Source: an uncultured virus (IMG/VR IMGVR_UViG_3300011834_000039)
Taxonomy: Duplodnaviria > Heunggongvirae > Uroviricota > Caudoviricetes
IMG/VR virus record: IMGVR_UViG_3300011834_000039
Strand: one strand, 5' to 3'
Length of the DNA: 64,000 nt
The stretch's first letter is position 1; every line of letters starts with the position of its first letter. The position numbers and the translations under genes were made by a program. The notes under the pieces are model-generated. The model was not told where the DNA came from. It did not search any database and was given only the letters and a program-made list of their open reading frames with translations. This document shows positions 1 through 26,873 of this stretch, in pieces.

Positions 1-1110
1 TCATGCCAATTTTCTCTTTTCTCTCAATAGGTTATCATTAGATTGTGATGGATGCACATATCCCAAAAAGCTATCTAGGACAGTAAGCCCACGATAAACC
101 AACGCCTTGCCTGCTGATTTGGCCTCTCTCCCCGATTGTCCGTTCGACTTCCCTATGCTCTCCATTGTCTGCCCACCAAGAACCGCATCTTCAACTGGAT
201 CGAGCAGTGCACCCAAGACTGATCTGATGCGTGCCAGAACGGGCTTCTTGTCGATATAGTCAGCAAGCGCGTCCTCATTAAGCTTGATATGCAGGCTTTC
301 GGTGCGGCCTCCATGCACAGTCCCATCGTCTGACACCTGCGCGGCCAATATCCGTCTTGGTGGGATGCTGTACGAACCTTGAGACTTCTTCACTTCCGAA
401 CGGTACTCAATCTCGCCATCATCGGTTGTCTTGCTGCGATACACGATGTTGACGCCGTTCGCGCTTCCATCTCCATAGCTCTGGCCCTTCAAAGGTTCTG
501 ATTCACACAGCGCCACCAACTGACGATACTGCAAAACTGCTGCAATCAGATCGGCACGTTTATCCCGGCGCAGAACCGCAAGGAGCGGGAAATCCTCATC
601 GCGCGATTGAACGCAGTTCGGATCACCAATGGATTGGCGTTTTTCGATTTTCTTTCGTATTCGGGAGCTCAATCGCTCTGCCTTGGCTTTCTTGGTTGCT
701 GAGAAATCCCGGCCAGATGCTCGATCTTCAGGTGTGCGGATAATCTTCGGCTTTTCATCTTCCTTTGTCGGCTCCACGGCACGAAGCGTGTACTTGCCGT
801 CTTCATCGCGTTCAAACCTAGTGTCGGTTCGATATTCGTGATCGCCCTTCATTCGTGGGTGATACTCGCTCACCGGCTCCTGCGAATTGTCGTTAGAAGC
901 GTCGTATTGTCGGTGATGCCCATCAACAAATCCGATCCTACGCGCACTTGTCTCGTTGACGAACTGATGCGCGTCAATTTCCAGCATCAGATCGTCAACG
1001 GCCTTCAGTTTGCCATCCGAAATATCCCGATACTCAAAAGAACGTTGATACGTTCGAACGGGCGAGCCAACTTCATTCAGGTAAGTATCACCAGCTTTTT
1101 GAATTCTCAT
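1..1110 (-). CDS. Putative late-gene transcriptional regulator (C-terminal sigma-region-4/Q-like HTH)
   Basis: 369 aa ORF at the end of the early operon after VRR-NUC; C-terminal 'DAVLGGQTMESIG...AGKALVYRGL' is HTH-like; RBS motif at 1117-1125. Confidence 0.5.
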   Translation of the reverse strand: MRIQKAGDTYLNEVGSPVRTYQRSFEYRDISDGKLKAVDDLMLEIDAHQFVNETSARRIGFVDGHHRQYDASNDNSQEPVSEYHPRMKGDHEYRTDTRFERDEDGKYTLRAVEPTKEDEKPKIIRTPEDRASGRDFSATKKAKAERLSSRIRKKIEKRQSIGDPNCVQSRDEDFPLLAVLRRDKRADLIAAVLQYRQLVALCESEPLKGQSYGDGSANGVNIVYRSKTTDDGEIEYRSEVKKSQGSYSIPPRRILAAQVSDDGTVHGGRTESLHIKLNEDALADYIDKKPVLARIRSVLGALLDPVEDAVLGGQTMESIGKSNGQSGREAKSAGKALVYRGLTVLDSFLGYVHPSQSNDNLLREKRKLA

Positions 1111-1139
1111 ATGTCATCCTCGTGTTTTGGTTTGGTTGG

Positions 1140-1643
1140 TTAGGCGGCCTTGGTGGCGTGCGTTTCTGCCAGCCACCCAAGAACCGCCGTAACGGCTCGC
1201 TCAGCGGCTTCTGTCGTTGTGGTGGCTCGAATGACCAGAACCGTGTAGCCAAGCCGTTGTAGGTCAGCGTGGCGGTCTTTCTGGGCCGGCGACAGTCTTC
1301 CCTGCCCGACCTTGTTCTCGATCAGCAGCAACCGGCCGTATTCGCCATAGATACGGAGATCGGGTTCGCCGCTAGTCATTCCCGTTGCAATTGCCTGAGC
1401 CTGAGCTCTTGGACCGCGCTTGCTGGCGTTCATGTCACCGGCCAGCAGGAACTGGCGCTGGTACTGTGGTAGTCGGCGGAGGCTGGCGACTTGTGCCGCC
1501 TGTAATTCCCACTCGAGCGGCAAGGCTGGCTTTGTCGTCACCTTACCGGCCTTCGTAGTGATTTTGACGCGGGCGCCGTTGATGCGGGTGATCTGTGTCG
1601 TGGTTGCCGTAGATGAAGGCGCGCGTATGCGGCTGCGTGCCAT
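1140..1643 (-). CDS. VRR-NUC domain nuclease
   Basis: 'GMTSGEPDL...IENKVGQGRLSPAQKDRHADLQRLGY' PD-(D/E)XK VRR-NUC signature; ATG at 1643 follows GAGGAG. Confidence 0.88.
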   Translation of the reverse strand: MARSRIRAPSSTATTTQITRINGARVKITTKAGKVTTKPALPLEWELQAAQVASLRRLPQYQRQFLLAGDMNASKRGPRAQAQAIATGMTSGEPDLRIYGEYGRLLLIENKVGQGRLSPAQKDRHADLQRLGYTVLVIRATTTTEAAERAVTAVLGWLAETHATKAA

Positions 1644-1764
1644 GTGAGCTCCTCGTGTTGATTGCGGTATGCCGTTGGTAGCGGCAAGAGGAGTGTGGGA
1701 TGTCACAATAAATGTGGTGTTAATGGCCTACGCAGCGTGGCAACTATTTCGGCCCGGCCTCAAA

Positions 1765-1990
1765 ACAGGTTGTATTTTGGAATTGGCTAAAATCAGGAAA
1801 AGTGCGCACTTCTCAAAACTCGAGAACTGCGCGCCGCGCGCTTTGTGCGTAAGTTTCTATATAAGAACACTTACGCACCAAAAGCAGCGTGCATTTGCGA
1901 ACTTCTTTTTGGTCTTTTCGAGAAGTGCGCACAAAGAAGTGCGCAGTATCAGAAGTTGTATTTTGATTATGACATCGGGTTGTATTGAAT
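1765..1990. repeat. Iteron-like cluster, candidate replication origin of prophage 1
   Basis: Palindrome AAGTGCGCACTT (1800-1811); AGAAGTGCGCA twice (1921, 1935); inverted repeat GTGCGTAAGT/ACTTACGCAC around TATATAA (1845-1878); GTTGTATT three times. Confidence 0.6.
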
Positions 1991-2088
1991 GGCTGGGGAA
2001 GGTACATTTGGCAGCAGCGGTACTTGCCTGAATCTGAGATTCCCGGCTATATCCCCACTTTCAAAATAGCAGAGCGTTAAGTGGCACT

Positions 2089-3395: not shown

Positions 3396-3435
3396 AATGG
3401 TGCGCTCTAAGCCCGCCGATTGGTCGCGGCAATAA

Positions 3436-4569: not shown

Positions 4570-4675
4570 AGTGTATTCCAATTTGATCGAGGAAGATTCG
4601 TAGGCGGCACCGCCTAATCTTATGAGATAGGGTCCGCAAATGCGAGCGGCAAAGTTATACTGGCCATCAGTTGAA

Positions 4676-6865
4676 TCAAACCGCCCGCACAAACGACGTC
4701 GTTTTCCTCTGCACTGGATCGCGCTCCTCGACCTTCGCCAAGAACCCTTCCTTGAACAGCGCCTTCGTAATGAGGCTGGCCCGCTTCTTCTGCACCTCGT
4801 CGTCGACATCTAGCCCCAGCGCATAAGCCACGGCGTGACCAACCCAATCTTTGGCCTGCGGGGCCTGTTTGTACATTCCGCCGTTCACAGCGCCACGGAT
4901 TGCATCCTTCTGATCATCAGTCAGACCTTCGGCAACTTCCTCGCTGGACGGCCAATGCCATTCGGTCACAACCGGCGCATGGTCCTGTGGCTGCGTCAGC
5001 CCACGACCATTGCCCAACGCCACGCTTTCGATATGGCGCCAGTCCAGACGGTGCGACAGCGGCGTAAGGTTCGACTTGCCGTATGTGATCGAGAAATAGC
5101 CGAACCGATCCATGCCGGGAATGCCTGCCTCGTTAGCTTGCGCTTCCGACATGCGGTTCAGGACGCGCACGGAACGAGCGGCACCGATCAGCGCCACAGC
5201 ACCGCGAGCATCTTCAACGGTGGCCTCACGGTCGCTCACCTTGCGCAGGTGGTGCACGATGTCGATGGAGCAGTTGGTGTAGTCAGCGATCTGCGCCCAG
5301 AGCTTCGCGACCTTGTCGATTGCGCCGTTGTCGTTTTCGTTGACCTGGTGCGTCGACACGAACGGATCGACAATCATTACGTCGATGCCATTGGCAAGGA
5401 TGGTTTCAGCAACCGCCTCAACGATCGGCTCCTGGATTTTGACGCCTTTCTTGTCATCGATCGCCACGACTAGTTCCTGCTCACGCCCGCTGTCGAGGAA
5501 CAGATGACCGTCGATGTCTTCTGGCTTGAGATTGAAGTGGATGCACGCCGCCATGATGCGGCGCTCAAGCTCGTCGCGCGGATCTTCGACGTTGAACAAC
5601 CAGACCTTAAGCCGGCGGGGCGGCTTGACGCCGTTCAAAGCCTTGCCAGACGCCATAGCGAGCGCTTCCACGATGCTATTCGCTGTTTTGCCAAGGCCGC
5701 CCGGCGCAACCGTAACTGAGACATACTTACGGATGAAGTGCCGACCGAAAGCAAATTCGCGGCGTGGCAGTGTCGACGGGTCTTTCCATTGGAACGGCGT
5801 AGCTGCAAGGATGGGTTGGTCGGCGGGCTCGTCTTCGACGGGCGGCAGCTTTTCCGGATCGATGCGAACTGTTATCACTAGGTCTTCGGGGTTGGTGTCA
5901 CCGCCCTCCACCTTCGCTCGCGCGTTGTCGAGCATGCGCGTGATGTCCACGAGCTTGGTATTGTCGTTAAGCGCTTCCGGAGCCTGACGCGGATGCATCT
6001 TGCCGGCTTTCAAGCCGTTATCGATCGTCTTGCAGCAACGCGGGAAGTCCCTGCCCCAGCCGCGCGCCACGTCTTGCAGCAAGGCCCGCGCTTCGGATTC
6101 CGACAAAGCCCCAGCGCCGACGAACGTGCCCATCCGAAACGCAGCGTCGTTCAGGCGGTTGTTGCGGTTGCCCATCGGTTCCATGGCAAGGTCGTCCAGC
6201 TCAGACTGTACCGCGCGCTCGACGTATCGGTCGTTAATCGTGCCAGACACCGACGGCGCCTTATACATCGTCGTGCTGTCGTATGACCGTGGCAGGACAA
6301 GCTCCAGCAGCCAGTCTGGAGCCTCGACTGGCTCCATATCGACCAGCCAGCGGTAAGGCTGGCCAACAGCAGGCACACTGCCAGCCGCGATAACATAGCC
6401 ACCGTCGCCGCGAACATCGATGCCCGCGCCCAATGCTCCGCGGTTACGAACGCCTGCCTTGTGCTTGAAGAAGTAATGTCGGCCTCCGCTCGTGGTTTCA
6501 GCCGTAAGCGTGGGTGGCAACGCGCCGTGCTCAGCCTCCAATGCGGCAAGCGTATCCGGACCGCCATGCTTCGGATCTATATCCAACACCCAAGCACCGA
6601 TAGGCGCACCGGTCGGCACGCCGATCATTGCACCGGGATTGCGACGCCAAAGCTCCCGAACAATTCGCTCATTCAGCGTCGCACCACGGAAACCATTGCT
6701 GGTAAGCGGTGTTTTGGTGGCTAGAATTTCGATAAGGCCGTCCTCGTCGACGAACTCTTCGTCGGCGGCACGGCATGGGAAGACAGGCCATCTGCGCTCT
6801 GTGTAGGATAGCGCTACGTCGAGTATGGGGTCTTCACCCGAAAACACTTGGATGTTATTTTCCAT
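4676..6865 (-). CDS. Bifunctional primase-polymerase / RepA-like (AAA_25) helicase
   Basis: Prim-Pol motifs 'WPVFPC', 'VLDID', 'TTSGGRHYFF', 'DVRGDGGYV'; Walker A 'APGGLGKT'; 'IVDP', 'VHH'. Confidence 0.92.
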   Translation of the reverse strand: MENNIQVFSGEDPILDVALSYTERRWPVFPCRAADEEFVDEDGLIEILATKTPLTSNGFRGATLNERIVRELWRRNPGAMIGVPTGAPIGAWVLDIDPKHGGPDTLAALEAEHGALPPTLTAETTSGGRHYFFKHKAGVRNRGALGAGIDVRGDGGYVIAAGSVPAVGQPYRWLVDMEPVEAPDWLLELVLPRSYDSTTMYKAPSVSGTINDRYVERAVQSELDDLAMEPMGNRNNRLNDAAFRMGTFVGAGALSESEARALLQDVARGWGRDFPRCCKTIDNGLKAGKMHPRQAPEALNDNTKLVDITRMLDNARAKVEGGDTNPEDLVITVRIDPEKLPPVEDEPADQPILAATPFQWKDPSTLPRREFAFGRHFIRKYVSVTVAPGGLGKTANSIVEALAMASGKALNGVKPPRRLKVWLFNVEDPRDELERRIMAACIHFNLKPEDIDGHLFLDSGREQELVVAIDDKKGVKIQEPIVEAVAETILANGIDVMIVDPFVSTHQVNENDNGAIDKVAKLWAQIADYTNCSIDIVHHLRKVSDREATVEDARGAVALIGAARSVRVLNRMSEAQANEAGIPGMDRFGYFSITYGKSNLTPLSHRLDWRHIESVALGNGRGLTQPQDHAPVVTEWHWPSSEEVAEGLTDDQKDAIRGAVNGGMYKQAPQAKDWVGHAVAYALGLDVDDEVQKKRASLITKALFKEGFLAKVEERDPVQRKTTSFVRAV

Positions 6866-6890
6866 CAATCTTCCTTATTGGAGCCTGGAG

Positions 6891-7079
6891 ATGTCCAAAG
6901 GACGGTATGAAATGAAGAGAATGAGCAACGGCAAATGGTCGGTCGTCGATACCGAAACCGACCACGTGGCCAAGCTGCAAGATTCCTATTTAAGAGACCT
7001 CGATATCGATGAGGCCGAGGCGGCGACGGCACTAATGAACCGAATTCATGCCGCAGGCCTAAACGTCACGCCGCAGTGA
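6891..7079 (+). CDS. Small hypothetical protein, antisense to the replication operon
   Basis: 62 aa ORF with GGAG upstream; overlaps the 3' end of the cytosine MTase gene. Confidence 0.5.
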   Translation: MSKGRYEMKRMSNGKWSVVDTETDHVAKLQDSYLRDLDIDEAEAATALMNRIHAAGLNVTPQ

Positions 7080-8236
7080 TTGTCGTTGGCGGCCATAATC
7101 TCTGTTGCTAGGAAAGCTTCGATGAACGCTTGCGCTGCGGGCGCAACGATTGCATTGCCGTAACCGCGCAATCGTCCCACTCGGGCGGCAGCCCCATCAA
7201 CCAGCGGGAATGTGCCGGGTTCAACTGGCCGCCACTTTCCATCCCGGCAGAACAGCCAGTCAGCATCTCGCCAGAAGCCGTTAGTCGGGCCGGTTGATTG
7301 TGGTCCATGGCGAGCTTCGTCGATGCCGACAGGTCCATGGTGACTTTCGAGCCGTCCGGCATCCTGCCTGTCATACTCACACCTTTGCGCGGACCCTTGC
7401 CCCCATTCCCGTTGCTCGCATCCGGCGTCGGCCATCCGGCAAGATTGGCGGTCGCCCTCATTTCCTCGCGCCGATCCTCCGGAGACTTGTCGTAAGGATT
7501 GCCCCGACTGTCTGCCACTTTCGGCGTCGGCCAGCCTGCCAAATTCGCTTGTCGCGGCAGTTGGTCGAAGCGATCCTTGCCCGTGTCCGAACGTGGCCGA
7601 ATGTCCGCCCCGCTGTCCTTCCAGTCCCGCGAAGCGGGCGTCACCCACGATGCCAAAGCCGCGTTCGATGTCAGCGCGCCACCCGCTTGGTTCGGCCCAC
7701 CGTTCGAGCCGTCCGACGCCCTCGGCGTGTTCCAACCTTTTCCCAACCCAATAGAGCCGCTGTCTGATGTGCGGCGCGCCGAAGCCCGCAGCGCAGGTAT
7801 CGACTGCCCCGCTGGCGTAGCCCGATCCTTCCAGGTCAGCTTGTACAAGGTCGAGCCAGCCAAGTCCGTCCTTGCTCGCAACCTGCTCGCCAAAGACGAT
7901 TGAAGGGCGGCAGTTTTCAATAAGCCAGTGGAAGTGCGGCCATAAGTGCCGCTCGTCAGTAAACCCTGCTCCTTTGCCTGCCGCGCTGAAAGGCTGGCAT
8001 GGGCAGGATCCGGTCCAGACGGGGCGATCATCTGGCCATCCTGCGCGGCGGAGCGCGTAAGACCAGACGCCAATCCCGGCGAAGAAGTGGCATTGTGTGT
8101 ATCCGATAAGGTCGGAAGGTCGAATATCGACAATTGAACGTTCATCAACATCTCCCGGTGCGATGTGGCCAGCCTTGATTAGCTCGCGCAACCAAGCCGC
8201 CGCTTTCGGGTCAAACTCGTTGTAATAGGCTGTCAT
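7046..8236 (-). CDS. DNA (cytosine-5) methyltransferase, alpha-type polypeptide lacking motif IX
   Basis: Motif I 'FFAGIG', IV 'GSCPCQPFS', VI 'GEQV', VIII '[11 protein letters not shown]', X 'YGNAIV'. Confidence 0.9.
7108..8151 (-). CDS. Overlapping alternative-frame polypeptide carrying the TRD and motif IX of the cytosine MTase (start uncertain)
   Basis: 347 open codons nested in the MTase gene; motif IX-like '[17 protein letters not shown]'; four WxTP repeats. Confidence 0.75.
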
Positions 8237-8243: not shown

Positions 8244-8555
8244 TCAGAATGGAGCTTCGCTTAGGGCCGCACGCATCCCTCGCCCGCAGCCTTCCCACGC
8301 GGCTTTCACCAGTTGCCTGGCTTCCAGTTCGTCCATGTCCTTAAGGTCGGTTTTGCCAAGCTCTTGCAGGTACGCCCCAACAGCCTCCACACCCGTATCA
8401 AGAGCGCGCAGCTCGTACGGGTCCAACCGCCGCCGATGCCGGATATGCTCGGCGATGTCGGCGCATTCCTTGCATAGCCAGCGGATCGGTTCCCGGTCTG
8501 CCTGCACTCCGAGGCCTACGGCGTGGCGTGCGCAGACATCACATTGTTCGCTCAT
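8244..8555 (-). CDS. Conserved phage protein with CxxC...CxxC (DUF6511-like)
   Basis: 'CDVC', 'CKEC', 'GAYLQELGKTDL'; ATGA overlap with upstream gene. Confidence 0.7.
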   Translation of the reverse strand: MSEQCDVCARHAVGLGVQADREPIRWLCKECADIAEHIRHRRRLDPYELRALDTGVEAVGAYLQELGKTDLKDMDELEARQLVKAAWEGCGRGMRAALSEAPF

Positions 8556-9367
8556 GCGGCATCTCCGAAAAGGCTGGCCTGCACAGGCAGATGGTTGTCA
8601 TTCGCCGGTTGCGCTTTCGCGGCAACAGGGCGCGCATCTGTAAAGTCAACGCAAACGATTTCGCACATAGGCGAGACGCCCTCCCACTGATCGATGAAAT
8701 AGGCGGTATCAACACCGCAGCCGGTATCGAAATGCAGGCCTGTCTGTTCCTGAAACTTAACGGCTTTGCCACTGGTCTGGCGCTCATAGCTCTGCCGTCC
8801 AGAATAATTGAAGCCTGCCGACATCTGTGGAACGATGAACGTGCCGTAGTCTGCCAGATGGGACGCAATATCAATTACGTGGAATTCGAAGTCCTTGCCG
8901 CTGTATCTCGGGGAGTTTTTGCTCCGCTTGATAGTGCCGAACGGAGGATTGCTAATCGCACTGTCGAAGTGCCCCAGCCCCATATCCAGAACGTCAAACA
9001 CGTCAGCGTGTATCCATTCTGCTTCTGGCAGCAGTTTCTTCCCAACCTCCAGATAATCGGCATTACGCTCAACACAGGTGATTTGTGGCCTGCTGTCGCT
9101 GAAACGGCTGCGCTGCCAAATGGCGTAAGATAGCATTCCAATCCCGGCACAGAGGTCGATAATGCGACCGCCACCGGCATCTATCGCAAAATCAAATGCC
9201 ATGTCGAATGGCGTGAAGAAAGCGCCAGCAGCGCCATTCACGTGGTTCGCACCTTCGTTCCAGTTCCTGTAGACAAATTCCTTATCGTCTTCCGACAGCC
9301 GTTCTTGCTGCAGGATAGCGACTGCTTGAGAGTGCGCCTGCGCTTGCGCCCTTGTGAGCTTAGCCAT
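8552..9367 (-). CDS. Amino (N6-adenine-type) DNA methyltransferase
   Basis: 'GAFFTP', SAM motif 'IDLCAGIG', catalytic 'NPPF'. Confidence 0.85.
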   Translation of the reverse strand: MAKLTRAQAQAHSQAVAILQQERLSEDDKEFVYRNWNEGANHVNGAAGAFFTPFDMAFDFAIDAGGGRIIDLCAGIGMLSYAIWQRSRFSDSRPQITCVERNADYLEVGKKLLPEAEWIHADVFDVLDMGLGHFDSAISNPPFGTIKRSKNSPRYSGKDFEFHVIDIASHLADYGTFIVPQMSAGFNYSGRQSYERQTSGKAVKFQEQTGLHFDTGCGVDTAYFIDQWEGVSPMCEIVCVDFTDARPVAAKAQPANDNHLPVQASLFGDAA

Positions 9368-9939
9368 TAAGCCACCCTCCCCAGCAAATCCTGATTGTCG
9401 TTTGCGGCCACATACTTGCCCGCCTCATTGCCCCACGATGACCATCCCGCCCACGCTTGGCGTGCGAACAGCTCAAGGTACGGACCGTCAACAAGCCGCT
9501 CAATGCGGTCGTACTGTTCGTCAGGCTTGCGACTATGCTCACGCCGCGGCGCTTTGATCAGCGAACGCACGCCTTTATTAAGACGGCGCGGCCTGCCTCG
9601 CTTGAACAGATGGCAGATTTCGACTTCCTGTCGCGTCCAATAGCCCATGCCCATCCGGCCCTTGTCCCAGACAAGAGCCACGCTGACAGGACGGAATCCC
9701 CACGATGCAGCAACATCGAAGGCTTCACGCTGCAGGTGTGAAACGGTCCACATGAACAGCAAACAGTCGCGGGCGCATACCTGTTCGACAGGCAGCGCCT
9801 TGATATCGTCGAGCGACATCACGCAATAAGGCTGGCGGCCTCGCGCCGGCGCGACGTTCTTCTTGTTGTAGGTTCTAAATGCCCATGGCGGGTCCGCAAG
9901 GACGCAGCCGAAAGGCCCGCTCGGTAGCGGTTCATCCAT
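9367..9939 (-). CDS. MT-A70 family adenine methyltransferase
   Basis: 'ADPPW', 'LFMW', 'GMGYWTR', 'EHSRKP', 'LELFAR', 'WGNE'. Confidence 0.92.
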   Translation of the reverse strand: MDEPLPSGPFGCVLADPPWAFRTYNKKNVAPARGRQPYCVMSLDDIKALPVEQVCARDCLLFMWTVSHLQREAFDVAASWGFRPVSVALVWDKGRMGMGYWTRQEVEICHLFKRGRPRRLNKGVRSLIKAPRREHSRKPDEQYDRIERLVDGPYLELFARQAWAGWSSWGNEAGKYVAANDNQDLLGRVA

Positions 9940-9998
9940 CCTCATCTCCTCGTGTTTCGTGGTGGTAACCCGCCAGTTGGTGGCTGGCGGGGTGTTGG

Positions 9999-10905: not shown

Positions 10906-12639
10906 CTACAGGTAGGCAGCATCGTTTATTTCATCGTCGGTCAGTCCATTGGCGGGCGTCGGCTCATTATCATTGCCAGCCTCCGGCACGTTGTCATTCG
11001 CAGCGCCCGCAATAGCGTCGACCACTTCCCAATAGCGCCCATTCGGCTTGACCACGATCTCGGCCGTCGGCAGCAGCTCGTTCTGGCGTTCCATGAATTC
11101 CAGCACGGTTTTCGGGAAAGGTGCCTGACCGCCGTGCTTTCGCCACCACCGGTCTGACTTCGACTTGAAGAAGCCGCTATGAGCGGGTCCGAGCCATTCA
11201 TTGAGCGGTGACATGCCGACCCAATACGAAACCTTCACACTGTCCTGCTTGCCGCCCTTGCCTTCGTGGTATGCGAATGTGCGGCGCGTAACTTCCCTCG
11301 TCTCTGGCGTCGCAACGCTCACAATCGGCGCGTCAGTTGCGTGGCTTTGCAGCTTCGGCGTTTCATCGAATTCAAACTCATGGCCGCAACACCAGCAAAT
11401 GCGCAATGAAGCATGCAGTTGCTCGTTACAGGTCGGGCAGATCTTGATCGGGGCTTGCCCGTCACCCTTTACCGGCTTGCGCGGCTCGATCATATCGACG
11501 GGGCCGTGCTCTGCGACGTTGCCAGCGAAGTCCATGTAACGACAGTTAGGCTTCAAGTAGCCAGCAATAGCTGCCCGGCGTTCTTCCGGCCCAACTGCTT
11601 CTGGATCAAAGCGCGGCGGATAAAGTACGCGAGTTCCACGTCCGACGCGCTGCACGTATCGGCTTGCAGACTTCGTGCGCGCCATATCTACTATAAGGTC
11701 GATACGGGGCACGTTCGTTCCCGTAGACATGACATTGTCGTTGCTAATCGACCAGATTTCGCCCGCTTTACATGCCTCAATAATCTTTCGCCGCTCATTC
11801 TTTGGTGTGGCGCCATGCAGAACTTCGCAGGACTTCCCCATCGAGCGCACCATGTCGCGCACGTTCGTGGCGTGCTTAACGCCGGCGCAGAAGAATAGTG
11901 CAGTCCTGCGCTGCCCTTCTGTGTCGAAAACCTCTTCAAGAATCCGGCCGTTCAGATCGTCGCGATCAACAGCATCCTGCAATGCGCCCTTGGCAAGATC
12001 ATTCCCTCGCATCGGGACATGTGAAGTGTCTTGCTTGGTTTCAGTTGGCTTTGACGTGACCGGCGAAAGATATCCGTCGTCAATGCCCTGCCGTATGCCG
12101 TATGTATAGACGACCTTATCGAACAGTCGGTCGTCGCCCTCATCCAGGCGCCCGCTATCAAGGCGATAAGGCGTGGCGGACAAACCCACGATCTTCATAT
12201 CTGGATTGATCGCCAGCAACGCGTCGATAAATTGCCGGTACATCGTGTTGGCGTCATTCGGCACCAAATGAACCTCATCGATCGCCAACACGTCTACATG
12301 GCCGATCTGAGCCGCCTTGTTATAAACCGTCTGTAATTGCGCAAACAGAATTTGCGCCCGCGCTTCACGGCGGCCAAGGGCAGATGCATATATGCCAGTC
12401 GGAGCGAACGGCGCGATACCGATCAGCTCGAGAAAGTTACCTTCGACCAGTTCCACGACATGAGTGCAGCAGCACAGTCGCATGTCAGGCCAGCCGGTAA
12501 TCAACTCGTGGAATAGCGTGGCAAGAGTCATCGACTTGCCCGTACCGGTCGCCATGTCCAGCAGAGGATGTCCCGCCTCGGCTTTCCAATAATCGAAAAC
12601 GGCGTCTACCGCCTCGCGCTGATAGTATCGCAATGCCAT
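10906..12639 (-). CDS. SF2 DEAD/DEAH helicase (RadD/YejH-like) with C-terminal Zn ribbon
   Basis: 'LRYYQ', 'ATGTGKS', 'DEVH', 'SATP', 'QRVGRG', 'CPTC...CWCC'. Confidence 0.92.
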   Translation of the reverse strand: MALRYYQREAVDAVFDYWKAEAGHPLLDMATGTGKSMTLATLFHELITGWPDMRLCCCTHVVELVEGNFLELIGIAPFAPTGIYASALGRREARAQILFAQLQTVYNKAAQIGHVDVLAIDEVHLVPNDANTMYRQFIDALLAINPDMKIVGLSATPYRLDSGRLDEGDDRLFDKVVYTYGIRQGIDDGYLSPVTSKPTETKQDTSHVPMRGNDLAKGALQDAVDRDDLNGRILEEVFDTEGQRRTALFFCAGVKHATNVRDMVRSMGKSCEVLHGATPKNERRKIIEACKAGEIWSISNDNVMSTGTNVPRIDLIVDMARTKSASRYVQRVGRGTRVLYPPRFDPEAVGPEERRAAIAGYLKPNCRYMDFAGNVAEHGPVDMIEPRKPVKGDGQAPIKICPTCNEQLHASLRICWCCGHEFEFDETPKLQSHATDAPIVSVATPETREVTRRTFAYHEGKGGKQDSVKVSYWVGMSPLNEWLGPAHSGFFKSKSDRWWRKHGGQAPFPKTVLEFMERQNELLPTAEIVVKPNGRYWEVVDAIAGAANDNVPEAGNDNEPTPANGLTDDEINDAAYL

Positions 12640-12705
12640 ATTTACCTCTTGCTGCCAGCAAAACAAATATGTAAGCAAATTCAGTAGTGTTGCTTGGGGG
12701 CTAGC

Positions 12706-13017
12706 ATGAATGAATTGACTTGGTTTAGTGGTCCACTTTCGTGGGGCGACGCAGCCACCTGCGTAGGTCTTGCAATGACAGGTATTGGAGCATGGGTAAC
12801 CGCGCGATCCGTTATTCTTACTAGGGATCAAGCTAGGCTTATCGGCGTCGCTCGCTATGTCCCTGAAAATCCGGAAGATATGGACAAATTACCACATGTC
12901 CAAAGCCTATTGGCGCAATCTCGAGCTGCTCGGTGGGGTCTCCGTCTAATCTTGTTTGGCGCGTTATTTCAGTTTGGGCCAATCATTGAGAAAATTGCGG
13001 TTTGGTGGTGCGCGTAA
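12706..13017 (+). CDS. Two-TM membrane protein (moron, opposite strand)
   Basis: Two hydrophobic segments; AT-richer insert between helicase and nuclease genes. Confidence 0.6.
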   Translation: MNELTWFSGPLSWGDAATCVGLAMTGIGAWVTARSVILTRDQARLIGVARYVPENPEDMDKLPHVQSLLAQSRAARWGLRLILFGALFQFGPIIEKIAVWWCA

Positions 13018-14536: not shown

Positions 14537-15574
14537 CTAAACCCTCATCGGCATCAGCACGCCTGTCCACTCGCCCTCGCCATTGACGACGGCGGTCGAG
14601 CCTGCATCGCCGAGCGCAAAGCGCACGGTCGGTTCATCCAGCGCGCCAAGCATGTCGTTGACGTAGCGGGCGTTAAAGCCGATTTCCAAAGGCTCGCCTT
14701 CGAACTCAATCGAAACTTCATCGCTGGCCTTGTCGGCCAACATCAGCCGCAGCACATCTCCGACCGCGAATTTCACGGCTCGCGATTTATCGTCGGCAAC
14801 AGCGGCGACACGCTCGACCGCCTTCATAAGAGCCTGCCGGTCAACGGTAAGCACGTTCGCATTACCGGTAGGAATGACCCGCACATAATCGGGGAACGTG
14901 CCGTCGATCAGCTTGCTCGTGATAACCGTCGGGCCAGACGTGACGCGCACCTTGTTCTGGGAGAGTTCAAGCGTAACAGCGCCTTTCGGCAGTAGACCGA
15001 CCACATTGCGCGGCAGGATCACGCCGTAGCCCAAGTCACCGGCAGGTCCGACATTGCGCATCAGCCGGTGACCGTCGGTTGCGACGGCAACTAAGCGAGC
15101 GTCGACAGCATGGAGATAAACGCCAGCCAGGTAATAACGGGTCTCGTCCGTCGAAATGCAGTGCACACACGGCGCCACAAGCGCTGCCAGATCGAGCTCG
15201 AGCGTCGTGTCGAATTCACCGGCACTAAAGGACGGAAAGTCTTCAGCGGGTAAGACGTCGAGCTTGTAACGGCTACGGCCCGACGCGACGGTAAGGCGGC
15301 CTCCATCCAGCTCAAGGGTAACGTCGCCCGTTGCGCGCTTTGCGATGTCCGCAAGCATCTTGCCGGGAGCAGTCACGCTACCCGGCTGGCAGTCGAGCAC
15401 CGGCAGGCTGGTCGTTATCTCAACATCCAGGTCGGTGCCGGTCAGGCGTACCTGGCCATCCTCGACCGCCAAGAGCACGTTGGCGAGAATAGGAATTGAA
15501 TTCCGGCTTTCGATGGCACGGTTGACGGTCGCCAATGCGTGCGCGAGCTGTGAGCGGTCAATGCTGACTCTCAT
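14537..15574 (-). CDS. dnaN: DNA polymerase III beta sliding clamp, phage-encoded
   Basis: 'IPILANVLL', 'GTDLD', 'DETRYYLAGV', 'VATDGHRL', 'LIDGTFPDY.RVIP', 'IGFNARY', 'VLMPMRV'. Confidence 0.95.
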   Translation of the reverse strand: MRVSIDRSQLAHALATVNRAIESRNSIPILANVLLAVEDGQVRLTGTDLDVEITTSLPVLDCQPGSVTAPGKMLADIAKRATGDVTLELDGGRLTVASGRSRYKLDVLPAEDFPSFSAGEFDTTLELDLAALVAPCVHCISTDETRYYLAGVYLHAVDARLVAVATDGHRLMRNVGPAGDLGYGVILPRNVVGLLPKGAVTLELSQNKVRVTSGPTVITSKLIDGTFPDYVRVIPTGNANVLTVDRQALMKAVERVAAVADDKSRAVKFAVGDVLRLMLADKASDEVSIEFEGEPLEIGFNARYVNDMLGALDEPTVRFALGDAGSTAVVNGEGEWTGVLMPMRV

Positions 15575-15631
15575 CAAAGTCTCCTCGTGTTCGGTGATAG
15601 AAGGCGCGGTTGGTAGCCGCGCCTGTTGGGT

Positions 15632-16478
15632 TTAGGCGGCCAAAGGCCAGCCATCCTCGTCGAGTTCAGGCAGGACGAATTCGACGCCGTTGAGATTTGC
15701 GATATGCGCCAGCAGCGCTTCTGCCGTGCCTGGCATATTGTCATTCGCAGGTTGCACCCACGGCTCGCTTTCGGCGTCGTCGACAGTCAGGGCGTCAATT
15801 GCCGCCTCTATGGTGAAGGGTTTGTCTTCGTTGCCGAGAATAACCTTGTCGCCGTAGGCGCCGCCAATCTGGTCTTTCAGATCGTCCCATGTGTCGATTT
15901 TCACGCCACGAACTGCCAGTGCGATCTTCATCATATCGCCTTTGCCGATCGTGTAGCCGCGCTGCTGGTACTTCAGAACGCGTGTTGACGAAGCTAGCGG
16001 ATATCGCGTTCCAGCGTTGAATTTCAGGAACCGCTGGCTGTTGTGTTTCAGAAAGTCAGGATGAAAAACAAAGCCGGAGACGGGATGCTTTTCGCCGACG
16101 GTGATGAATTCTGCACCCTTCCACTTGGATCGCTCGCCCGTATCCAAGTCCACAGCGCCCATGCAGGACGGTGAAATCGAATGCCTTGAAGATATCTTCG
16201 GCCGTCGGAAAGAAGTCGAAATACATCAACTGGGCGATGTTGTTGCTTTGGTCGGCAAATGTAACGGCCCGCTTGCTAGCCGCGACGCACCATAGGCCTT
16301 CCTCATATGCGTCATAAACAGCACGCTCAAACGCCCGACGTGATTTGAAGTAAAGATCAACGTCATTGATCTTCGCCCCGGTGAAGACGCTCGTCACAGC
16401 GCCGCCAGCTACAAACGCGCCGTCAAAGCGTATCGGCAACGCGCCATCGATCTGTCTGCGCTCCGCTTCATAAGCCAT
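15632..16478 (-). pseudogene. Nucleotidyltransferase (Pol-beta superfamily) split by a +1 frameshift near 16166
   Basis: 'VAGGAV...NDVDLYF' NTase motif; removing one C from GTCCTGCATG restores 'FDFTVCMGAVD' and fuses ORFs 16056-16478 and 15632-16162. Confidence 0.75.
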
Positions 16479-17390: not shown

Positions 17391-18176
17391 TTACGCCGCC
17401 TCCCTCTGGTCATTATCGTTGCCAACCGGCCAGAACTTGGCAATGTCGGCAAAGCCCTGCCCTTTGCGGTAAACGACGCTGTCAGGCATCGAATAACGGT
17501 TTTTGGCATTGAAGCCTGCCGCCTCGTTGAAGTGCACCTGGCGCTCTTTGCCGCCCTCGGCGTGGCTAACCTTCGTCTGGCGCGCCACTTCCTTTTCCTT
17601 GATCGAGATGCGGTAGTTCATGAACGCGACGATGTCGGACTTCTCGCGAACCAATGCATTGGACCTTTTATGCAGCTTAGGCTGGTATCGAGAATACGGA
17701 TCCGTTGTCGGGCTGTCGAAGCGCACGATTTCAGGGTGCGCCAGCATGACCACATACATTCCTGCGCGGGACAGCGCAGACACCGCTGCCATCAGCTCAT
17801 TCCATTCGGTATCGGCTTCCACGTAGCCTTTCCCGAACCCAGCCTCCTCAATGCTGTTGATACCGAGGCGGGCCGATGTCGCACGCCAGACAAGCGGCTC
17901 AAGACCGTCGAGGCTGTCGATAATCACGGTGCGCCGATCGTGTTCTTCGGTCAGCAGTTCGCCGATGACGTTCAGCAGATCGTCGAAGGATTCAATCGTG
18001 CCGGGTGTTACCAATTCTATGTCGGACGGCGGACGCTCGCCTTCGGTCGCCAGATAGATCGGATCCGGGAACTCTGCTGCAAGCGACGTCTTGCCGATGC
18101 CGTCGACGCCATAGAGAAGGATCACAGGCGGATCGTTTCTCTTTGTCGACTTCAGGCTTGAAAGAGATAGAGCCAT
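17391..18176 (-). CDS. AAA_24 (Sak4-like) ATPase / recombinase
   Basis: Walker A 'YGVDGIGKT', 'IIDSLD', 'GFGKGY', 'LAH', 'AKNRY'; ATG at 18176 follows GAGGAG. Confidence 0.88.
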   Translation of the reverse strand: MALSLSSLKSTKRNDPPVILLYGVDGIGKTSLAAEFPDPIYLATEGERPPSDIELVTPGTIESFDDLLNVIGELLTEEHDRRTVIIDSLDGLEPLVWRATSARLGINSIEEAGFGKGYVEADTEWNELMAAVSALSRAGMYVVMLAHPEIVRFDSPTTDPYSRYQPKLHKRSNALVREKSDIVAFMNYRISIKEKEVARQTKVSHAEGGKERQVHFNEAAGFNAKNRYSMPDSVVYRKGQGFADIAKFWPVGNDNDQREAA

Positions 18177-18315
18177 AGGTCTCCTCGTGTTTAGTAGGTG
18201 TGGTGGGTGACTGCGATTGCGGCGATGACGGCCGCAAGTATGAGCCATCCGACAAGCCATGCAGGCGGGCTTGTGAGGGCGGCTGCGCAGTTGTCGCGTG
18301 GAGGTCTGCTGGGCA

Positions 18316-19412
18316 TTAGTGCGCGCCCCACAGATAAAGCAGCCCGTAGAATGGCAGCAGCAGATTCCAGAACAGGAAGGTTGCAATTGTCGTTGCGATT
18401 GCAAGCACGAACGCTGCAAGCGCCAAGGACTGTCCGATGCGTCCGACACCGGGCTTTCGCCCGGGATCAATGTGCGGCATGCCAGCCGCGGCTTTTGTGG
18501 CGAACGAGATCATGCCAGCACCCATGCGTAGAAACCGACCGTCACGGCTAGAACGGCGACGACTGCCAAGCCCCATAAAAAGCGATCGCCAAGGCCGAGC
18601 GTGGTTTCCGGCTCGTAAAATGAATCACCCTCCGCGTAGTCTTTGGGCGCATAGTTGCGCGTATGGCTGTACGTGGTGAAGGTCATCACGCTACTCCCCT
18701 CGTTTTGGTGTTTTTCGTAAGCTTCACCTTCTTGGTGAAATCGACCGGGATGATGTTGTCTTCTTCAGGCTTGTCAGCCTCGACACCGCCGCCGTCCTCT
18801 TCAACATCGGGCCCGACTTCGAAGCGCGAGACCTCAAGCTGCACAAGGCCCGTTCCGGGAATCATGAAACGCACAGTCAGCCAGCGGAAGCTGTCGCGCT
18901 CCTCAATGATGATGCCCTTCCACTTCCAAAGCCGGTGGACGACGATTTCGCCGGGCAAATCCCAGCATTCACCGCAATCACATGTCATGCGGCACCCCGA
19001 ATCTGCGCCGCCTTGGCACGCCATACGGCTCGCCAAACGCGTAAGCGCCATGGAATAAGCCATCCGAAAAAGCATGAAAGAACCGTCACGCTGCCGTAAC
19101 CGTTGACATCAAGCCCATACAGGCCATTGCCGATCCAGATATCGATGCCACGATTGCGATTGGTGGCGCGATACTCAGTAAAATGCCATTCGGCTGGGCT
19201 GTTCTTCAGCGCATCCAGCACTGCCGAAATCATCGGATTGGTCATGCGGCACCTCTTTTCGGTGCGCGGTGGTAGCTGACCGGCGCGCTGGAAACGTATC
19301 GCCCGTCAATAAGGCGAGCCGAAGCGCGTGCTTCTGCTTTTTGCGCAGCCGTCCGGTAAGGCTTGCGGTTTGTCATATCCCGCTCGCCAGTTCGCGTACA
19401 TTTCGTTTTCAA
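18316..19412 (-). CDS. Chain of five small early genes (19242-19412, 18985-19245, 18686-18988, 18510-18686, 18316-18513); the last two are membrane peptides
   Basis: Consecutive ATGA/TGATG overlaps and RBSs. Confidence 0.6.
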
Positions 19413-21342: not shown

Positions 21343-21642
21343 ATGGCTGACACCAGGTTTACTCCAGGGCCATGGGATTTTGAACCGTCCGGAAAAGAGG
21401 CTGGATATATTGGCTTCCCAGATGGGTCAGGGTTCTACGCTGCCATTCGTGAAGGTGACGGGCATCTGATCGCCGCCGCGACTGATCTGTATGAGGCGTC
21501 AGAGCCATTCGATGATTTGGCAACTCTGAGGGATGTTAACAGCCCAGAATGGTGCGACAGCGACACCTTAACCGTGGTCGTATCAATCCGATCATTACGC
21601 GCCATCAAAGCAGCCCGCGCCAAAGCGGAGGGCCGGTCATGA
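21343..21642 (+). CDS. Hypothetical phage protein ('TPGPW' family)
   Basis: 'FTPGPW...LIAAATDLYEA...AARAKAEG' is a common phage early-protein pattern. Confidence 0.7.
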   Translation: MADTRFTPGPWDFEPSGKEAGYIGFPDGSGFYAAIREGDGHLIAAATDLYEASEPFDDLATLRDVNSPEWCDSDTLTVVVSIRSLRAIKAARAKAEGRS

Positions 21643-21986
21643 GCACCCGCAACCCCACCATCGAGCTTGAGGACGCGCCGCTTACACGCGGACAGAAGAA
21701 CATCGTCGATGCGCTGGCAGCGATTTATCCGCGCCGCATCTACATCGACGACCTCGTTGACCACGTTTACGCTTTCGACCCGAACGGCGGCCCAGATGGC
21801 GCGCAGCAAGTCGTGCGAACGCAGATTTGCAATCTTCGAAAGCGCTTGCCCTCCTTTGGCTGGACGATCCCGATGAACCACAAGGGCCCTGGCAATCACG
21901 GATACTATCGCCTTGCACCAGTAGCTGCGAACGACAACGTGCCAGCTTCAGAACGGACGGCAAATGACCGGAGGGCAGCAGCATGA
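21639..21986 (+). CDS. OmpR/PhoB-type winged-helix DNA-binding protein
   Basis: 'DDLVDHVY...VVRTQICNLRKRL...GYYRL'. Confidence 0.8.
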   Translation: MSTRNPTIELEDAPLTRGQKNIVDALAAIYPRRIYIDDLVDHVYAFDPNGGPDGAQQVVRTQICNLRKRLPSFGWTIPMNHKGPGNHGYYRLAPVAANDNVPASERTANDRRAAA

Positions 21987-23035
21987 ACCGCGCCCTTTTG
22001 GAATTGCTCGCCGACGACGATTTTGAAACTGAAACCGACGCACCGAAGGCCGGCAGTGACGAGCCAATGCGCCGCCCGGATTATCGCGCCAAGAAACATG
22101 CACGCCCACAGCCGTGGCTCCGCTATGCGGCACGCGAAGCGGTCGAGATGACCGTTGTTATTGTTTTTGTTGTGGCCGTGTGCGGCGTTGGGTTGGGGTT
22201 ATCCGCATGAGGCGCGAAAGATAGCGACGGGGCGCTTAAGCCCCCGCCCCCCCCAAGATTAACGGCCTTTGCGCATCTGGCGCCACGGTTTTTTGCATCC
22301 ACTAACACGAGGAGAAGAACATGCACAGACATGTATCGACGACGCACACCGCTATGGCCCCCATCCTGACCGCCACCGAATTCCAGCAACAAGGCACGAC
22401 TGCTGCGCAAGTACTGTCGATCTCAAAGGCCGTACGTGCGCTTGGCTATCACTCAGAGGCTGAGACGCTGCGCGACACCGCCTTCGAACTAGCGCGCATT
22501 ACCGGCGTTCGGTTCCGTTATGGCGCTCCACGCCAGCGTCGCAACCCAGCCAACGACAATCGCCGTCGGCTGCGGAGGGCGGTGTGATGGGTGTGGGGGA
22601 AAAGGCTGTGCGCCATTGGGTTGCTGAGTTTAAGTGGCCAGGAAAGCGGAAGTTCTATGTTGGGACGGTCGAACTGCCCGCCCAAATCATGCAGCATGAA
22701 CTTGATGCTTCCCTTTTTCGAAAATTCCAAGAACTGTGGGGCAACATTCTTCCGGATGGCGTGCCGCTTCCGCAACTGGTCAACGCAATTCCTGGAGCGA
22801 TCGTATTTGTTGATGAACAGGTGCGCCCATGACCACTCTCACCATCTGGCTCCTTATCGGAATAGTCGTATACCTAGCGCTTTATATTAAGAAGCGCCGT
22901 ACCGAGCCTGAGAACACCAAGGCTTACGAAAAGCTCCCGCTGATCGCCCGCATTATTGGCGCTGTCCTATTCATCGTCATCTGGCCTCTGGCTTTGCTTG
23001 AGCTTCTTTCGGGAGGTAACGACCATGGCAATTAA
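21983..23035 (+). CDS. Four small hypothetical genes (21983-22210, 22321-22587, 22584-22832, 22829-23035)
   Basis: Coupled ORFs; first and last have TM segments; ACACGAGGAG RBS before 22321. Confidence 0.6.
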
Positions 23036-23894: not shown

Positions 23895-24197
23895 GCAAGC
23901 TCCACCTTTCTCTGAAAGCAGAATACTTTGACGCGATCCGCGACGGCACCAAGACGGAAGAGTACCGGCTTGCGAACGCTTACTGGACGCGGCGGCTCTT
24001 TGTGATCGGCTACAGGACAAACGGACACCGTAGCTTCAGCAGTATTGTACTGACCAAGGGCTACCCGAAAAGTGACGATACTAGTCGTCGCATCGAATTG
24101 CCGTGGCTCGGTTTCGTTCGCAAGACAATCACCCATCCACATTTTGGGCCTGATCCTGTCGATGTTTACGCAATCGACGTGTCTGGCCACACATCAG
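23891..24197 (+). CDS. ASCH/PUA-like domain protein (3' end runs into N gap)
   Basis: 'LHLSLKAEYFDAIRDGTKTEEYR...YW..RL' ASCH signature. Confidence 0.8.
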
Positions 24198-24489
24198 NNN
24201 NNNNNNNNNNNNNNNNNNNNNNNNNNNNNNNNNNNNNNNNNNNNNNNNNNNNNNNNNNNNNNNNNNNNNNNNNNNNNNNNNNNNNNNNNNNNNNNNNNNN
24301 NNNNNNNNNNNNNNNNNNNNNNNNNNNNNNNNNNNNNNNNNNNNNNNNNNNNNNNNNNNNNNNNNNNNNNNNNNNNNNNNNNNNNNNNNNNNNNNNNNNN
24401 NNNNNNNNNNNNNNNNNNNCGAAAAGTGGAACACCCGCCCCACCCCCGTTGCTCCCGTATCGCCGGATGCTACCGGCAAGTGCGGGGAG

Positions 24490-26682
24490 TTGGTGACGGT
24501 GGCTTGGGAGAGCATGGACAACAAGTGCGACCCAGACGACAAGCTGGTCTATGAAATCAAGTTCCCTCGAAATGGCGATAAGCGCCTAGTTTACCGCTCG
24601 CAGGCTGTGGAGCTATTGGCGGAACGGGATGAAACAATTCGTCGTCAGGACATAGCCCTGCGCGGTGCATTGCGGGAAGTTAAGCGATTGAAAGCCGACA
24701 ACGCGGCGAAGGATGCGCGGGTTAAGGAGTTGGAGACGGAAGTAGCCGAGGCTACTAGGCGCGGCGAAGACCAGTGGGCTGGATGGGTAAAAGAGGAAGC
24801 TCTGCGGAAAGCCCTCGAAGCCAAGCTCGCGGCGGCTGAAAAGGCGCTGGAGTTCTACGCCAAGCAGGTTTCTGGTTGTCGGAAGATAGGGTCAGACGGC
24901 GATAAGTTTCGTGCGTCTCTTGATGCCGATGGTGGCGCAACAGCCCGCGCAGCGCTGGGAGGGAAGCCGTCATGAAATGGTTCGCCCTTTGGATAAACAT
25001 CGTGTTTTACCCGCAATATTGCCGCCGTGTAAGCCTCGGAAATGGCAAATGGAAATGGGAGCCTTTGCCATGACCGACCTCATTACCCGCCTCTCCAAGC
25101 TAGACGCGCCTGACAGGGAAGTGGATGCGGAACTGGAAGCCGTTTCCCTTGGTGGCCGTGTTTACCTCAATGATCCAGAAAGCAAGGAAGTGATCATCGA
25201 AAGGCCGATTGATGGTTTTTGGATACGGGGCATTTATCCGTATCGCAAGATTGCTAGATACACTGCCTCTGTAGACGCAGTTATCGCGCTGGCTGAGAGG
25301 AAATTGCCAGACGCTAACGTCCTTATCGGATGGGGCCAGACCAAAGAGACCAAGCCGTGGGCGCGGATTGGCGTCATACCTTCACACGATGCAACGGGCT
25401 TTAACCTTGCCACCGCCCTCTGCATCGCCCTCTTGCGCGCAAAGGAGGCAAGCAAGCCATGAGTGAGAGCCTTGTATTCCGCAAAAGCCTTAAACAGCCG
25501 GATGCCTATAATCTCGTGATCCGCCGACACGACCTATCCGGCGTCGAATACGAACACATCTGCACGGTATCGACTGAAACCGCCGTCGAAATGAACCGTC
25601 TAGCTGAACATGGGATTGGTTTTTTACACGGCCATCCTTATCAACGGGGAGCCAGCAATGCCGAGTAAGGAACTCATCGCTCAAGCCGCGAAAGCAATGG
25701 AAGAACGGCGCAAAGAGCTTATCGCCCAGCCGTTGTCGCGCATCTATCCGCAATTGGCCAAAGCCGCCATCTCCACCATCCGCGCCGCGATAGCGGAGCC
25801 GAGTGAAGCGATGGTGCTAGCTGCATCAGATCAGGTGCGCATCAAGGCTATCTGGCGCGCAATGCTCGCCAAAAGCGCACTTGGGGAGCAGAGCGAATGA
25901 AGCTGACACCAACCATGAAGGAAGCACTGGCCCGCATGGCCGAGAAACTGAAGTACCGCAGCCGCGTCTTTTCTGAACCAAACGAGAATACCGGGCGTGC
26001 TCTATTGAAGCGCGGTTTGATCGAAGTCGTTGGGAAATCTGGAGGCTGGAACCTGTACGTTTTGACGGATGCTGGTCGCCAAGTTCTGGCGGAGGAAAGC
26101 GAATGAAGCTGACAGCACCAAAGAAATTTTCAGACAGGCTGAACGGTCTATCTGACAATGCGCAAAAGGCTTGGGAAGACGCCTTACAGGCATTCCGTGA
26201 GGCTCAGACTGTCGGCCACCCAGCCTATTTTTATCCAACTGAGGAAGGTCGCCAAGCCCTGAAAGGCGGTGGGGAATGAGCGCTCTCGCCGTACTTCTCA
26301 TTGCTGTGATTAGCTTGGCTTGGGTCTACCCTGAAAGGCTTGGCCGTTGGCTTCGCAAGGTCTGGAATGGCTTCGGCCCCATCAACGTGAACAAGCACGT
26401 TCATATCGATGCCGCCACGGTTGCCGCTCTGCGCGCCGCACTGCGGGAAAGGGAGTGAGGATGTTAGCGCGAGTCTACAAGCGAATTCTCATCATCATGG
26501 TGGCCATTGTCGCCATCATAGTTGCCTATCAGAACATTCCGCACATTCACATCGGAGAGCGTGCGCAAGGCAGCTACGAGGGCGGTATCGCATCTGACGA
26601 GGATGTTTCGACAGCGGTTCGAGAGGCCCAGGAAGCCGCAGATAAGGCAGGCCGTGCCGGCCCGGCAGAAAGCAGCCAGTAA
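24490..26682 (+). CDS. Run of small hypothetical genes (about 24490-24975, 25070-25462, 25459-25668, 25658-25900, 25897-26106, 26103-26279, 26276-26458, 26461-26682)
   Basis: Chained overlapping starts and stops with RBSs, typical of a variable early region. Confidence 0.55.
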
Positions 26683-26873
26683 TGGCGTCATACACCTTTG
26701 CTGACACCGAACGATGGTTGGACGCCATAGCCGGTGTAATTGCCTACTTTCCGGAAACAGAACAGAATCTGCTGCCACTTTATGAGCGCGTGGAACGAAT
26801 GCAGCGCAGTCTGGCTGCAAACGATAATATTCGCGACCGCATCAAATCACGGCTGCGTCGAACGGCAGCGTGA
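26682..26873 (+). CDS. Small basic protein convergent on the integrase (possible directionality factor)
   Basis: Last gene of the rightward operon; overlaps the integrase 3' end by 32 nt. Confidence 0.55.
   Translation: MASYTFADTERWLDAIAGVIAYFPETEQNLLPLYERVERMQRSLAANDNIRDRIKSRLRRTAA

Follow-up and report, generated by a model that had tools for sequence, protein, structure and literature searches.

In a 64,000-nucleotide stretch of DNA from an uncultured virus of the Caudoviricetes (IMG/VR record IMGVR_UViG_3300011834_000039; the whole stretch is referred to as the window), we identified a short peptide motif, Ala-Asn-Asp-Asn (ANDN) or a close variant, that recurs on unrelated proteins of one of its two prophages. 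By sequence comparison, this phage motif is identical to the head of the transfer-messenger RNA (tmRNA) tags of related hosts. The core of the motif, NDN, occurs in frame 16 times in 12 proteins of prophage 1 (bases 1 to ~28,200), and 12 of the 16 copies lie within 45 residues of a C-terminus. Judged from sequence, the motif probably ties its carriers to the host SspB-ClpXP protease. We propose, with moderate confidence, that the ANDN sites act as hard-coded ssrA-like degrons which depend on the adaptor, are graded in strength and are carried by much of the non-virion proteome. On balance, we regard the motifs as short linear copies of the SspB-binding head of the tag, placed in disordered ends and linkers of unrelated proteins that mostly handle DNA or act in regulation. 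The carriers in the window are as follows.

1..1110, minus strand: ORF1 (open reading frame 1), 369 amino acids, no family match; tail SNDNLLREKRKLA with NDN at 31-39, and an internal SNDN at 886-894
4676..6868, minus strand: Prim-Pol/AAA_25 primase; LNDN at 5960-5968 in an interdomain linker, and ENDN at 5327-5335 within the ATPase domain
7046..8236, minus strand: C5 cytosine methyltransferase; tail NDN at 7079-7087
8552..9367, minus strand: N6 (MTS-type) methyltransferase; tail PANDNHLPVQASLFGDAA, NDN at 8594-8602
9367..9945, minus strand: MT-A70 methyltransferase; tail AANDNQDLLGRVA, NDN at 9394-9402
10906..12831, minus strand: ResIII/Helicase_C helicase; tandem AANDN at 10990-10998 and GNDN at 10966-10974, 8 residues apart, and an internal SNDN at 11734-11742
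15632..16162, minus strand: protein whose PHROGs matches are all families of unknown function; PANDN at 15737-15745, then 34 residues, ending PLAA
16547..17104, minus strand: DUF669 protein, similar to single-stranded DNA-binding proteins (SSB-like); PANDN at 16628-16636, tail predicted to be disordered and ending KKRPWG
17391..18470, minus strand: AAA_24 (Sak4-like) ATPase; tail GNDNDQREAA, NDN at 17412-17420
21549..21986, plus strand: small protein with a likely true start near 21642; tail AANDNVPASERTANDRRAAA, NDN at 21930-21938; no Pfam or PHROGs match
22321..22587, plus strand: small protein of 88 amino acids; tail NPANDNRRRLRRAV, NDN at 22552-22560
26682..26873, plus strand: small protein of 63 amino acids, adjoining the integrase gene; tail AANDNIRDRIKSRLRRTAA, NDN at 26820-26828

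The original prediction, made from the sequence alone, had reported 14 copies in 12 proteins, mostly near the C-terminus. Every site that it listed was present and in frame, and the C-terminal placement was confirmed, while the count had to be raised to 16 by the ENDN of the primase and the internal SNDN of the helicase. Two of its protein labels did not survive: the "NTase" (15632-16162) and the "wHTH" (21549-21986) have no Pfam match, and PHROGs returned only families of unknown function for the former and nothing for the latter. The tail sites take the form [A/P/G/S]-NDN at 12 positions. The primase segment containing ENDN recurs in Rhizobium phage RHph_X2_26, a phage devoid of tail motifs; this copy is therefore probably outside the system. 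A tmRNA gene or fragment as the source of the motifs was ruled out, since ARAGORN detected no tmRNA in the window (only a tRNA-Met at 61908-61982) and the motifs are in frame inside long protein genes.

When the residues were permuted within each of 29 prophage-1 proteins (6825 amino acids), 20,000 shuffles yielded a mean of 0.47 NDN (maximum 6) and of 0.07 in the last 45 residues, and none of them reached the observed 16 or 12. A six-frame search of the 64 kb returned 21 NDN in total; the 5 that remain lie outside the reading frames or in short ORFs, a number close to chance expectation. It had been predicted that the codons vary synonymously, in frame and on both strands, and that selection consequently acts on the peptide. 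The codons of the window sites do vary as predicted, and the same holds for ten protein families of related loci (described below), in which 31 of the 32 synonymous forms of ANDN are used at 433 sites, with a codon preference close to that of the whole genes. In alignments, A-N-D-N stays invariant while the flanking tail residues drift, even in a homologue of 30% identity. On these sequence comparisons, selection on the motif acts at the peptide level and not on the DNA.

Prophage 1 belongs to a temperate, phage 16-3-like phage of a Rhizobium/Ochrobactrum-type bacterium. For the comparison with the host, genomes carrying related prophages stood in for the window's own host and provided five tmRNA tags: ANDNKAQGYALAA (two Ochrobactrum-type genomes), ANDNNAKEYALAA (Agrobacterium), ANDNRAPMAMAA and ANDNNKAPVALAA. 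All five start with ANDN and end in Ala-Ala (AA), in agreement with the predicted likeness to the host ssrA tag, and SspB is encoded in all five hosts. In these genomes sspB lies at most 2.5 kb from the tmRNA gene, and in three of them at most 0.5 kb. The Ala carried by tmRNA precedes the ANDN of the tag, and in alpha-proteobacterial tags such as that of Caulobacter, the NDN part is what SspB reads.

The host proteome was sampled as 400 kb of chromosome 1 from one related host genome (G002). This sample contained a single NDN in 114,348 amino acids, and 13 of its 377 ORFs (3.4%) end in AA, compared with 548 NDN in 374,330 amino acids and AA endings in 333 of 1702 ORFs (19.6%) for viral loci related to prophage 1. 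The resulting densities are 0.01 NDN per 1000 amino acids in the host chromosome, 1.46 in 80 viral loci and 1.26 in 27 loci from named genomes, so the expected enrichment over the host was found, and the contrast indicates that the motif is in use by the prophage and not by the host proteome. From typical residue frequencies we roughly estimate that about 5 NDN would be expected in the host sample, and host proteins may avoid the head of the tag. At the nucleotide level, a coding pattern for ANDN matched 25, 35 and 43 times in three host genomes, as against 17, 8 and 10 for the reversed pattern; 7 of the 25, 8 of the 35 and 20 of the 43 matches lie within the prophage, and one more per genome is the host tmRNA gene itself.

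The 80 viral loci and the 27 loci in named genomes were obtained by a search with the AAA_24 protein. Hosts of the latter include Ochrobactrum-type 'Brucella', Falsochrobactrum, Agrobacterium, Rhizobium, Devosia, Ahrensia and a Roseobacter metagenome-assembled genome. All called ORFs of the 80 viral loci together contain 583 NDN in 422,450 amino acids, 382 of them within 30 residues of the C-terminus; the residue before the motif is Ala in 397, and the one before that is Ala or Pro in 435. To count independent occurrences, we considered the 192 protein families that occur in at least 3 loci. At least half of the members carry a tail NDN in 18 of them, and ANDN is the tetrapeptide that the tails (last 45 residues) of the most families have in common, 15 of the 192, compared with 4 for the next non-overlapping tetrapeptide. 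The closest named phage, Rhizobium phage 16-3, has an identical gene order, with 68% identity between its p077 and the AAA_24 protein; over 50,000 of its 60,195 bases we found 15 NDN in 15,721 amino acids and AA endings in 11 of 83 ORFs. A relative from Agrobacterium carries the motif on a Gam-like protein, an endonuclease VII, a sigma factor, pyrophosphatases and a portal protein whose tail reads ANDN-x8-AA. Because of the portal protein, the view that only early proteins are marked proved too narrow.

The Sak4/DUF669/helicase module is also present in five other phages, one of which infects Sinorhizobium: Klebsiella YX3973, Brucella phage Tb, Rhizobium RHph_X2_26, Roseobacter CRP-902 and Pseudomonas DDSR119. 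Each of them has 1-2 NDN, always outside the C-terminal tails, and 0-1 ORFs that end in AA, and AND[DE]N is absent from all five. The sole ANDN among them is at the N-terminus of the major tail subunit of the Klebsiella phage. This supports the predicted restriction of the motif to one prophage lineage. Within 150 DUF669 representatives (50% clustering), a tail NDN is present in 32 of the 44 nearest and in 4 of the 106 more distant sequences, and the P-W tip in 114 of the 150. As the module relatives and most of the distant DUF669 proteins manage without a tail motif, we conclude that it is an add-on of one temperate lineage and dispensable for the core functions.

Retention of the motif was high in most carrier families. 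Both the tail NDN and the AA ending are retained in all 14 homologues of the N6 methyltransferase, in 38 of 38 of the 21549-21986 protein and in 13 of 13 of the 26682-26873 protein. NDN is found in 51 of 52 homologues of the 22321-22587 protein, and a tail NDN in 104 of 106 of the DUF669 protein, whose only invariant tail columns are ANDN and P-W (the tails terminate in R-P-W-G), and in 92 of 99 of the helicase. Most helicase homologues terminate in D-D-[DE]-[IV]-P-F, which we take to resemble the C-terminal tip of bacterial SSB; the ending of the window helicase itself differs (...DDEINDAAYL). For MT-A70, NDN lies no more than 45 residues from the C-terminus in 29 of 37 homologues. Some of its homologues have an N-terminal loop F-R-T-Y-A-N-D-N-V-A-P-A-R-G where others have F-R-T-Y-G-K-K-D-V-A-P-A-R-G, which indicates that the motif can also take the place of residues in a loop within a domain. 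The AAA_24 family is more variable in the motif (NDN in 41 of 106 homologues, AA ending in 84 of 106). A tail NDN is present in 18 of 102 homologues of the Cas4-like exonuclease, whose tails vary freely past a conserved W-[VI]-D-G; this family is one example, by sequence, of gain and loss of the motif across further families. For the C5 methyltransferase, a search against solved structures merely confirmed the enzyme family. Two further gene products of prophage 1 are free of the motif.

14537..15577, minus strand: phage-encoded DNA polymerase III beta sliding clamp; no motif, NDN in 1 of 95 homologues
26842..28197, minus strand: integrase at the end of prophage 1; ends VI, and none of 18 homologues has a tail NDN or an AA ending

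We then compared 263 unique NDN tails with 1426 other tails from the same loci. The NDN tails end in AA in 100 cases (38%), the other tails in 196 (13.7%). Among the 100 AA-ending NDN tails, 57 have 6-10 residues after NDN, and the native tag has 9. Two copies of the motif are present in 70 of the 263 tails and are spaced by exactly 8 residues in 56 of these. The endings of the window carriers are AA in 6 of 12, VA, LA or AV in 4, YL in the helicase and WG in the SSB-like protein, and the distances from NDN to the end in the AA-ending tails are 6, 10, 13, 14, 15 and 34 residues. Apart from the DUF669 protein, the window tails are located past the ends of the Pfam domains. An AlphaFold2 model of this DUF669 protein, the one carrier modelled, has a confident fold up to residue 149 and a tail (150-185) with a predicted local distance difference test (pLDDT) score of 35-44; according to this model, the motif (ANDN at 156-159) sits in a disordered tail. 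Additional placements are linkers, as in the primase, and positions beside other tip motifs. One such neighbour is the clamp-binding-like Q-A-S-L-F (Q-A-D-L-F in relatives) ahead of the final AA in the N6 methyltransferase, a sequence which suggests recruitment of this methylase to the clamp.

To assess the fit of a phage tail to SspB, we built a complex model from the C-terminal 36 residues of the 21549-21986 protein (alignment of 14) and a pair of host SspB domains (residues 1-125, alignment of 5). The complex scored 0.70, while the best of three controls scored 0.02; the pass mark is cleared by 116 of 157 solved complexes and by 2 of 215 mismatched pairs. Three runs gave a contact agreement of at least 63% and a partner pLDDT of at least 57, and the contacts of lowest error were formed by A126-A127-N128-D129-N130. 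The model thus places AANDN in the SspB groove, which is a statement of likeness, not of binding.

Under the proposed degron function, host SspB would bind [A/P]-A-N-D-N and thereby tether the carrier to ClpX. With an Ala-Ala end, typically 6-15 residues further on as in the native tag, ClpXP would engage the carrier and degrade it. Since the native YALAA ending is not copied, the tails would be weak, adaptor-dependent degrons similar to engineered SspB-dependent tags. Early proteins bearing such tails would consequently be short-lived, with levels set by the workload of SspB and ClpXP. Binding of SspB by the motif, for which the complex model speaks, is inferred, as are the degradation of the carriers and the biological purpose of the motif, for which the original prediction had suggested a proteolytic timer, a safety catch in the lysogen or an SspB decoy. 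It is quite unlikely, in our estimation, that the phage goes further and senses trans-translation clean-up because at least a dozen carriers, among them regulatory and even assembly proteins, queue with ssrA-tagged debris for the same SspB and ClpXP. In that case leaky early proteins would be cleared in healthy lysogens, whereas more products of stalled ribosomes, under stress, starvation or antibiotics, would make the entire early proteome stable at the same time and tip the prophage towards the lytic cycle; tandem, N-terminal and AA-less copies would set the position of each protein in the queue.

Several observations weigh against a degron function. Just 6 of the 12 window carriers end in AA, and 59 of the 263 unique NDN tails end in PF. 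Pro stands two positions past NDN at 154 sites and in none of the five host tags. The motif is N-terminal in 5 of the 192 families (for example M-T-K-P-A-N-D-N and M-S-P-A-N-D-N), where the logic of a C-terminal tag is not directly applicable. The portal protein of the Agrobacterium relative, which needs stability, carries ANDN-x8-AA. The expected head of gamma-proteobacterial tags is AND[DE]N, and variants tracking a different host tag were not found (AND[DE]N in 0 of the 150 DUF669 representatives); such variants would have been the strongest comparative support. Additionally, the solved SspB structures 2qas, 2qaz and 2nys match the host SspB, and one of them contains the tag peptide; with similar complexes already solved, the pass of the complex model may reflect memory. 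The AA-less, N-terminal and tandem copies, together with the portal protein, keep two rival explanations alive, namely docking to a different hub and engagement of SspB or ClpX that does not destroy the carrier.

The first rival holds that ANDN docks to another hub, for instance an organiser encoded by the phage or a host protein of the replisome or of pole organisation, and that the likeness to ssrA is coincidental. The occurrence of the motif at either terminus and in linkers, the fixed 8-residue spacing of tandem copies and the Pro past NDN that the host tags lack would all fit such a function, as would the neighbouring recruiting tips (the SSB-like tip and the clamp-binding-like Q-A-[DS]-L-F) and the beta clamp that motif-bearing phages encode themselves (p081 in phage 16-3). 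However, identity with the tag head over four residues plus an enrichment of AA endings is unlikely to arise by coincidence, the model, whose controls reach no more than 0.02, seats the motif in the SspB groove, and ANDN is polar, unlike clamp-binding motifs. We therefore consider another hub rather unlikely.

The second rival accepts contact with SspB, which the complex model supports, or with ClpX via SspB, and supposes that the carriers are not destroyed. They could act as decoys that soak up SspB and alter host proteolysis, or recruit ClpX as a chaperone for nucleoprotein remodelling, as for MuA and lambda O. The majority of the carriers act on DNA, half of those in the window have no AA ending, the tandem copies are on the helicase and on the likely abundant SSB-like protein, and the functional tips RPWG and DDIPF must remain intact. 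A decoy would, on the other hand, have no use for the link between NDN and AA or for a native-like spacing, and small regulators and enzymes of nucleotide metabolism are also among the carriers. This explanation seems unlikely to us.

Finally, the pattern could reflect chance, composition or a repeat at the DNA level, such as a site of binding or recombination, and a somewhat favoured GAC at the Asp codon (83% vs 63% in the same genes) speaks for this. It is ruled out by the shuffles, by the range of synonymous codings, by the in-frame placement on both strands with few out-of-frame copies and by the retention of the motif in distant homologues.

The remainder of the window provides the context of these genes. 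Prophage 1 is the early arm of a temperate phage and terminates at the integrase; by Pfam and PHROGs, it encodes the Prim-Pol/AAA_25 primase, the C5, MTS-type N6 and MT-A70 DNA methyltransferases, a Gp157-like protein, the ResIII helicase, the Cas4-like exonuclease, the DNA polymerase III beta clamp, the DUF669 SSB-like protein, the AAA_24 (Sak4-like) ATPase and several small proteins without a family. In a megablast comparison of 20 kb with a phage collection, the methyltransferase genes were the sole matches. Between the primase and a VRR-NUC-like gene, an ORF on the minus strand (3484-4809) encodes a PAS and HWE histidine-kinase protein; it is possibly phage cargo and is overlapped by an ORF of 256 amino acids on the opposite strand. 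Runs of N are present at 24198-24419 (222 bases) and at 2690-2699, 20490-20499 and 50293-50302 (10 bases each). The 222-base run falls among the small genes of prophage 1 and breaks ORFs there, which could hide one or more motif sites.

The second prophage (28.3-64 kb) is unrelated and myovirus-like, with baseplate, tape-measure, portal and terminase genes. It has early genes of its own, which encode an O-like initiator, methyltransferases, a ParB-methyltransferase fusion, an antiterminator and a repressor (62310-63041). The original prediction had seen no motif on its proteins, and we likewise found no NDN in 43 ORFs of at least 80 amino acids between 28.2 and 64 kb. A further virus record (G001), which has 21% of the window's words in common, does not match prophage 1 and probably matches 28300-64000.

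That a single phage protein can carry a ClpXP signal is well established, and a literature search that covered few subscription journals returned no description of the motif reported here. The phage tails have in common with the native alpha-proteobacterial ssrA tag the head (A-)A-N-D-N and the placement on a disordered C-terminus, and often an Ala-Ala end, in part at a similar spacing. The phage tails differ in that they are gene-encoded and not added by trans-translation, do not copy the middle and the YALAA of the tag, and in many cases are AA-less, N-terminal, in linkers or in tandem. According to a review (PMC3985003), the C-terminal ALAA of the tag is the part recognised by ClpX, and SspB is a tag-binding protein in beta- and gamma- and "perhaps" alpha-proteobacteria. 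Tags resembling ssrA are also carried by Int and the viral form of Rep in mycobacteriophages with integration-dependent immunity (Broussard et al. 2013, described in PMC9635641), and the likeness that we propose is that a temperate phage hard-codes an ssrA-like degron through which ClpXP sets the level of a protein. The mycobacteriophage system comprises two tagged proteins, is exclusively C-terminal and is tied to an attP inside the repressor gene. In the present case, about a dozen proteins per phage bear the motif, which comprises the head for the adaptor, and the integrase has no tag.

In engineered SspB-dependent degrons, an ssrA tag with a weakened ClpX-binding end (PMC3064785), the head is likewise kept and the end weak or altered, so that degradation of the phage proteins would similarly depend on SspB. 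Those degrons are man-made, while the phage tails are natural and predicted from sequence. Lambda O and MuA are also phage replication and transposition proteins with terminal peptides that are recognised by host ClpX (review PMC8138137), but their signals, which are found on single proteins and are recognised by ClpX itself, have no sequence relation to the head of the ssrA tag. Further, a Pseudomonas phage with an sspB gene of its own has been described (PMC5587285).

If the proposed function is correct, a whole phage proteome furnished with the adaptor-binding head of a host quality-control tag would represent a new scale of host mimicry. The tails would provide temperate phages of rhizobia, agrobacteria and their relatives with a tunable control of protein lifetime that is tied to host physiology, and they would be natural adaptor-dependent degrons usable in alpha-proteobacterial genetics. 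Mutations in sspB, ssrA and clpX would then be predicted to alter lysogeny and induction of phage 16-3.

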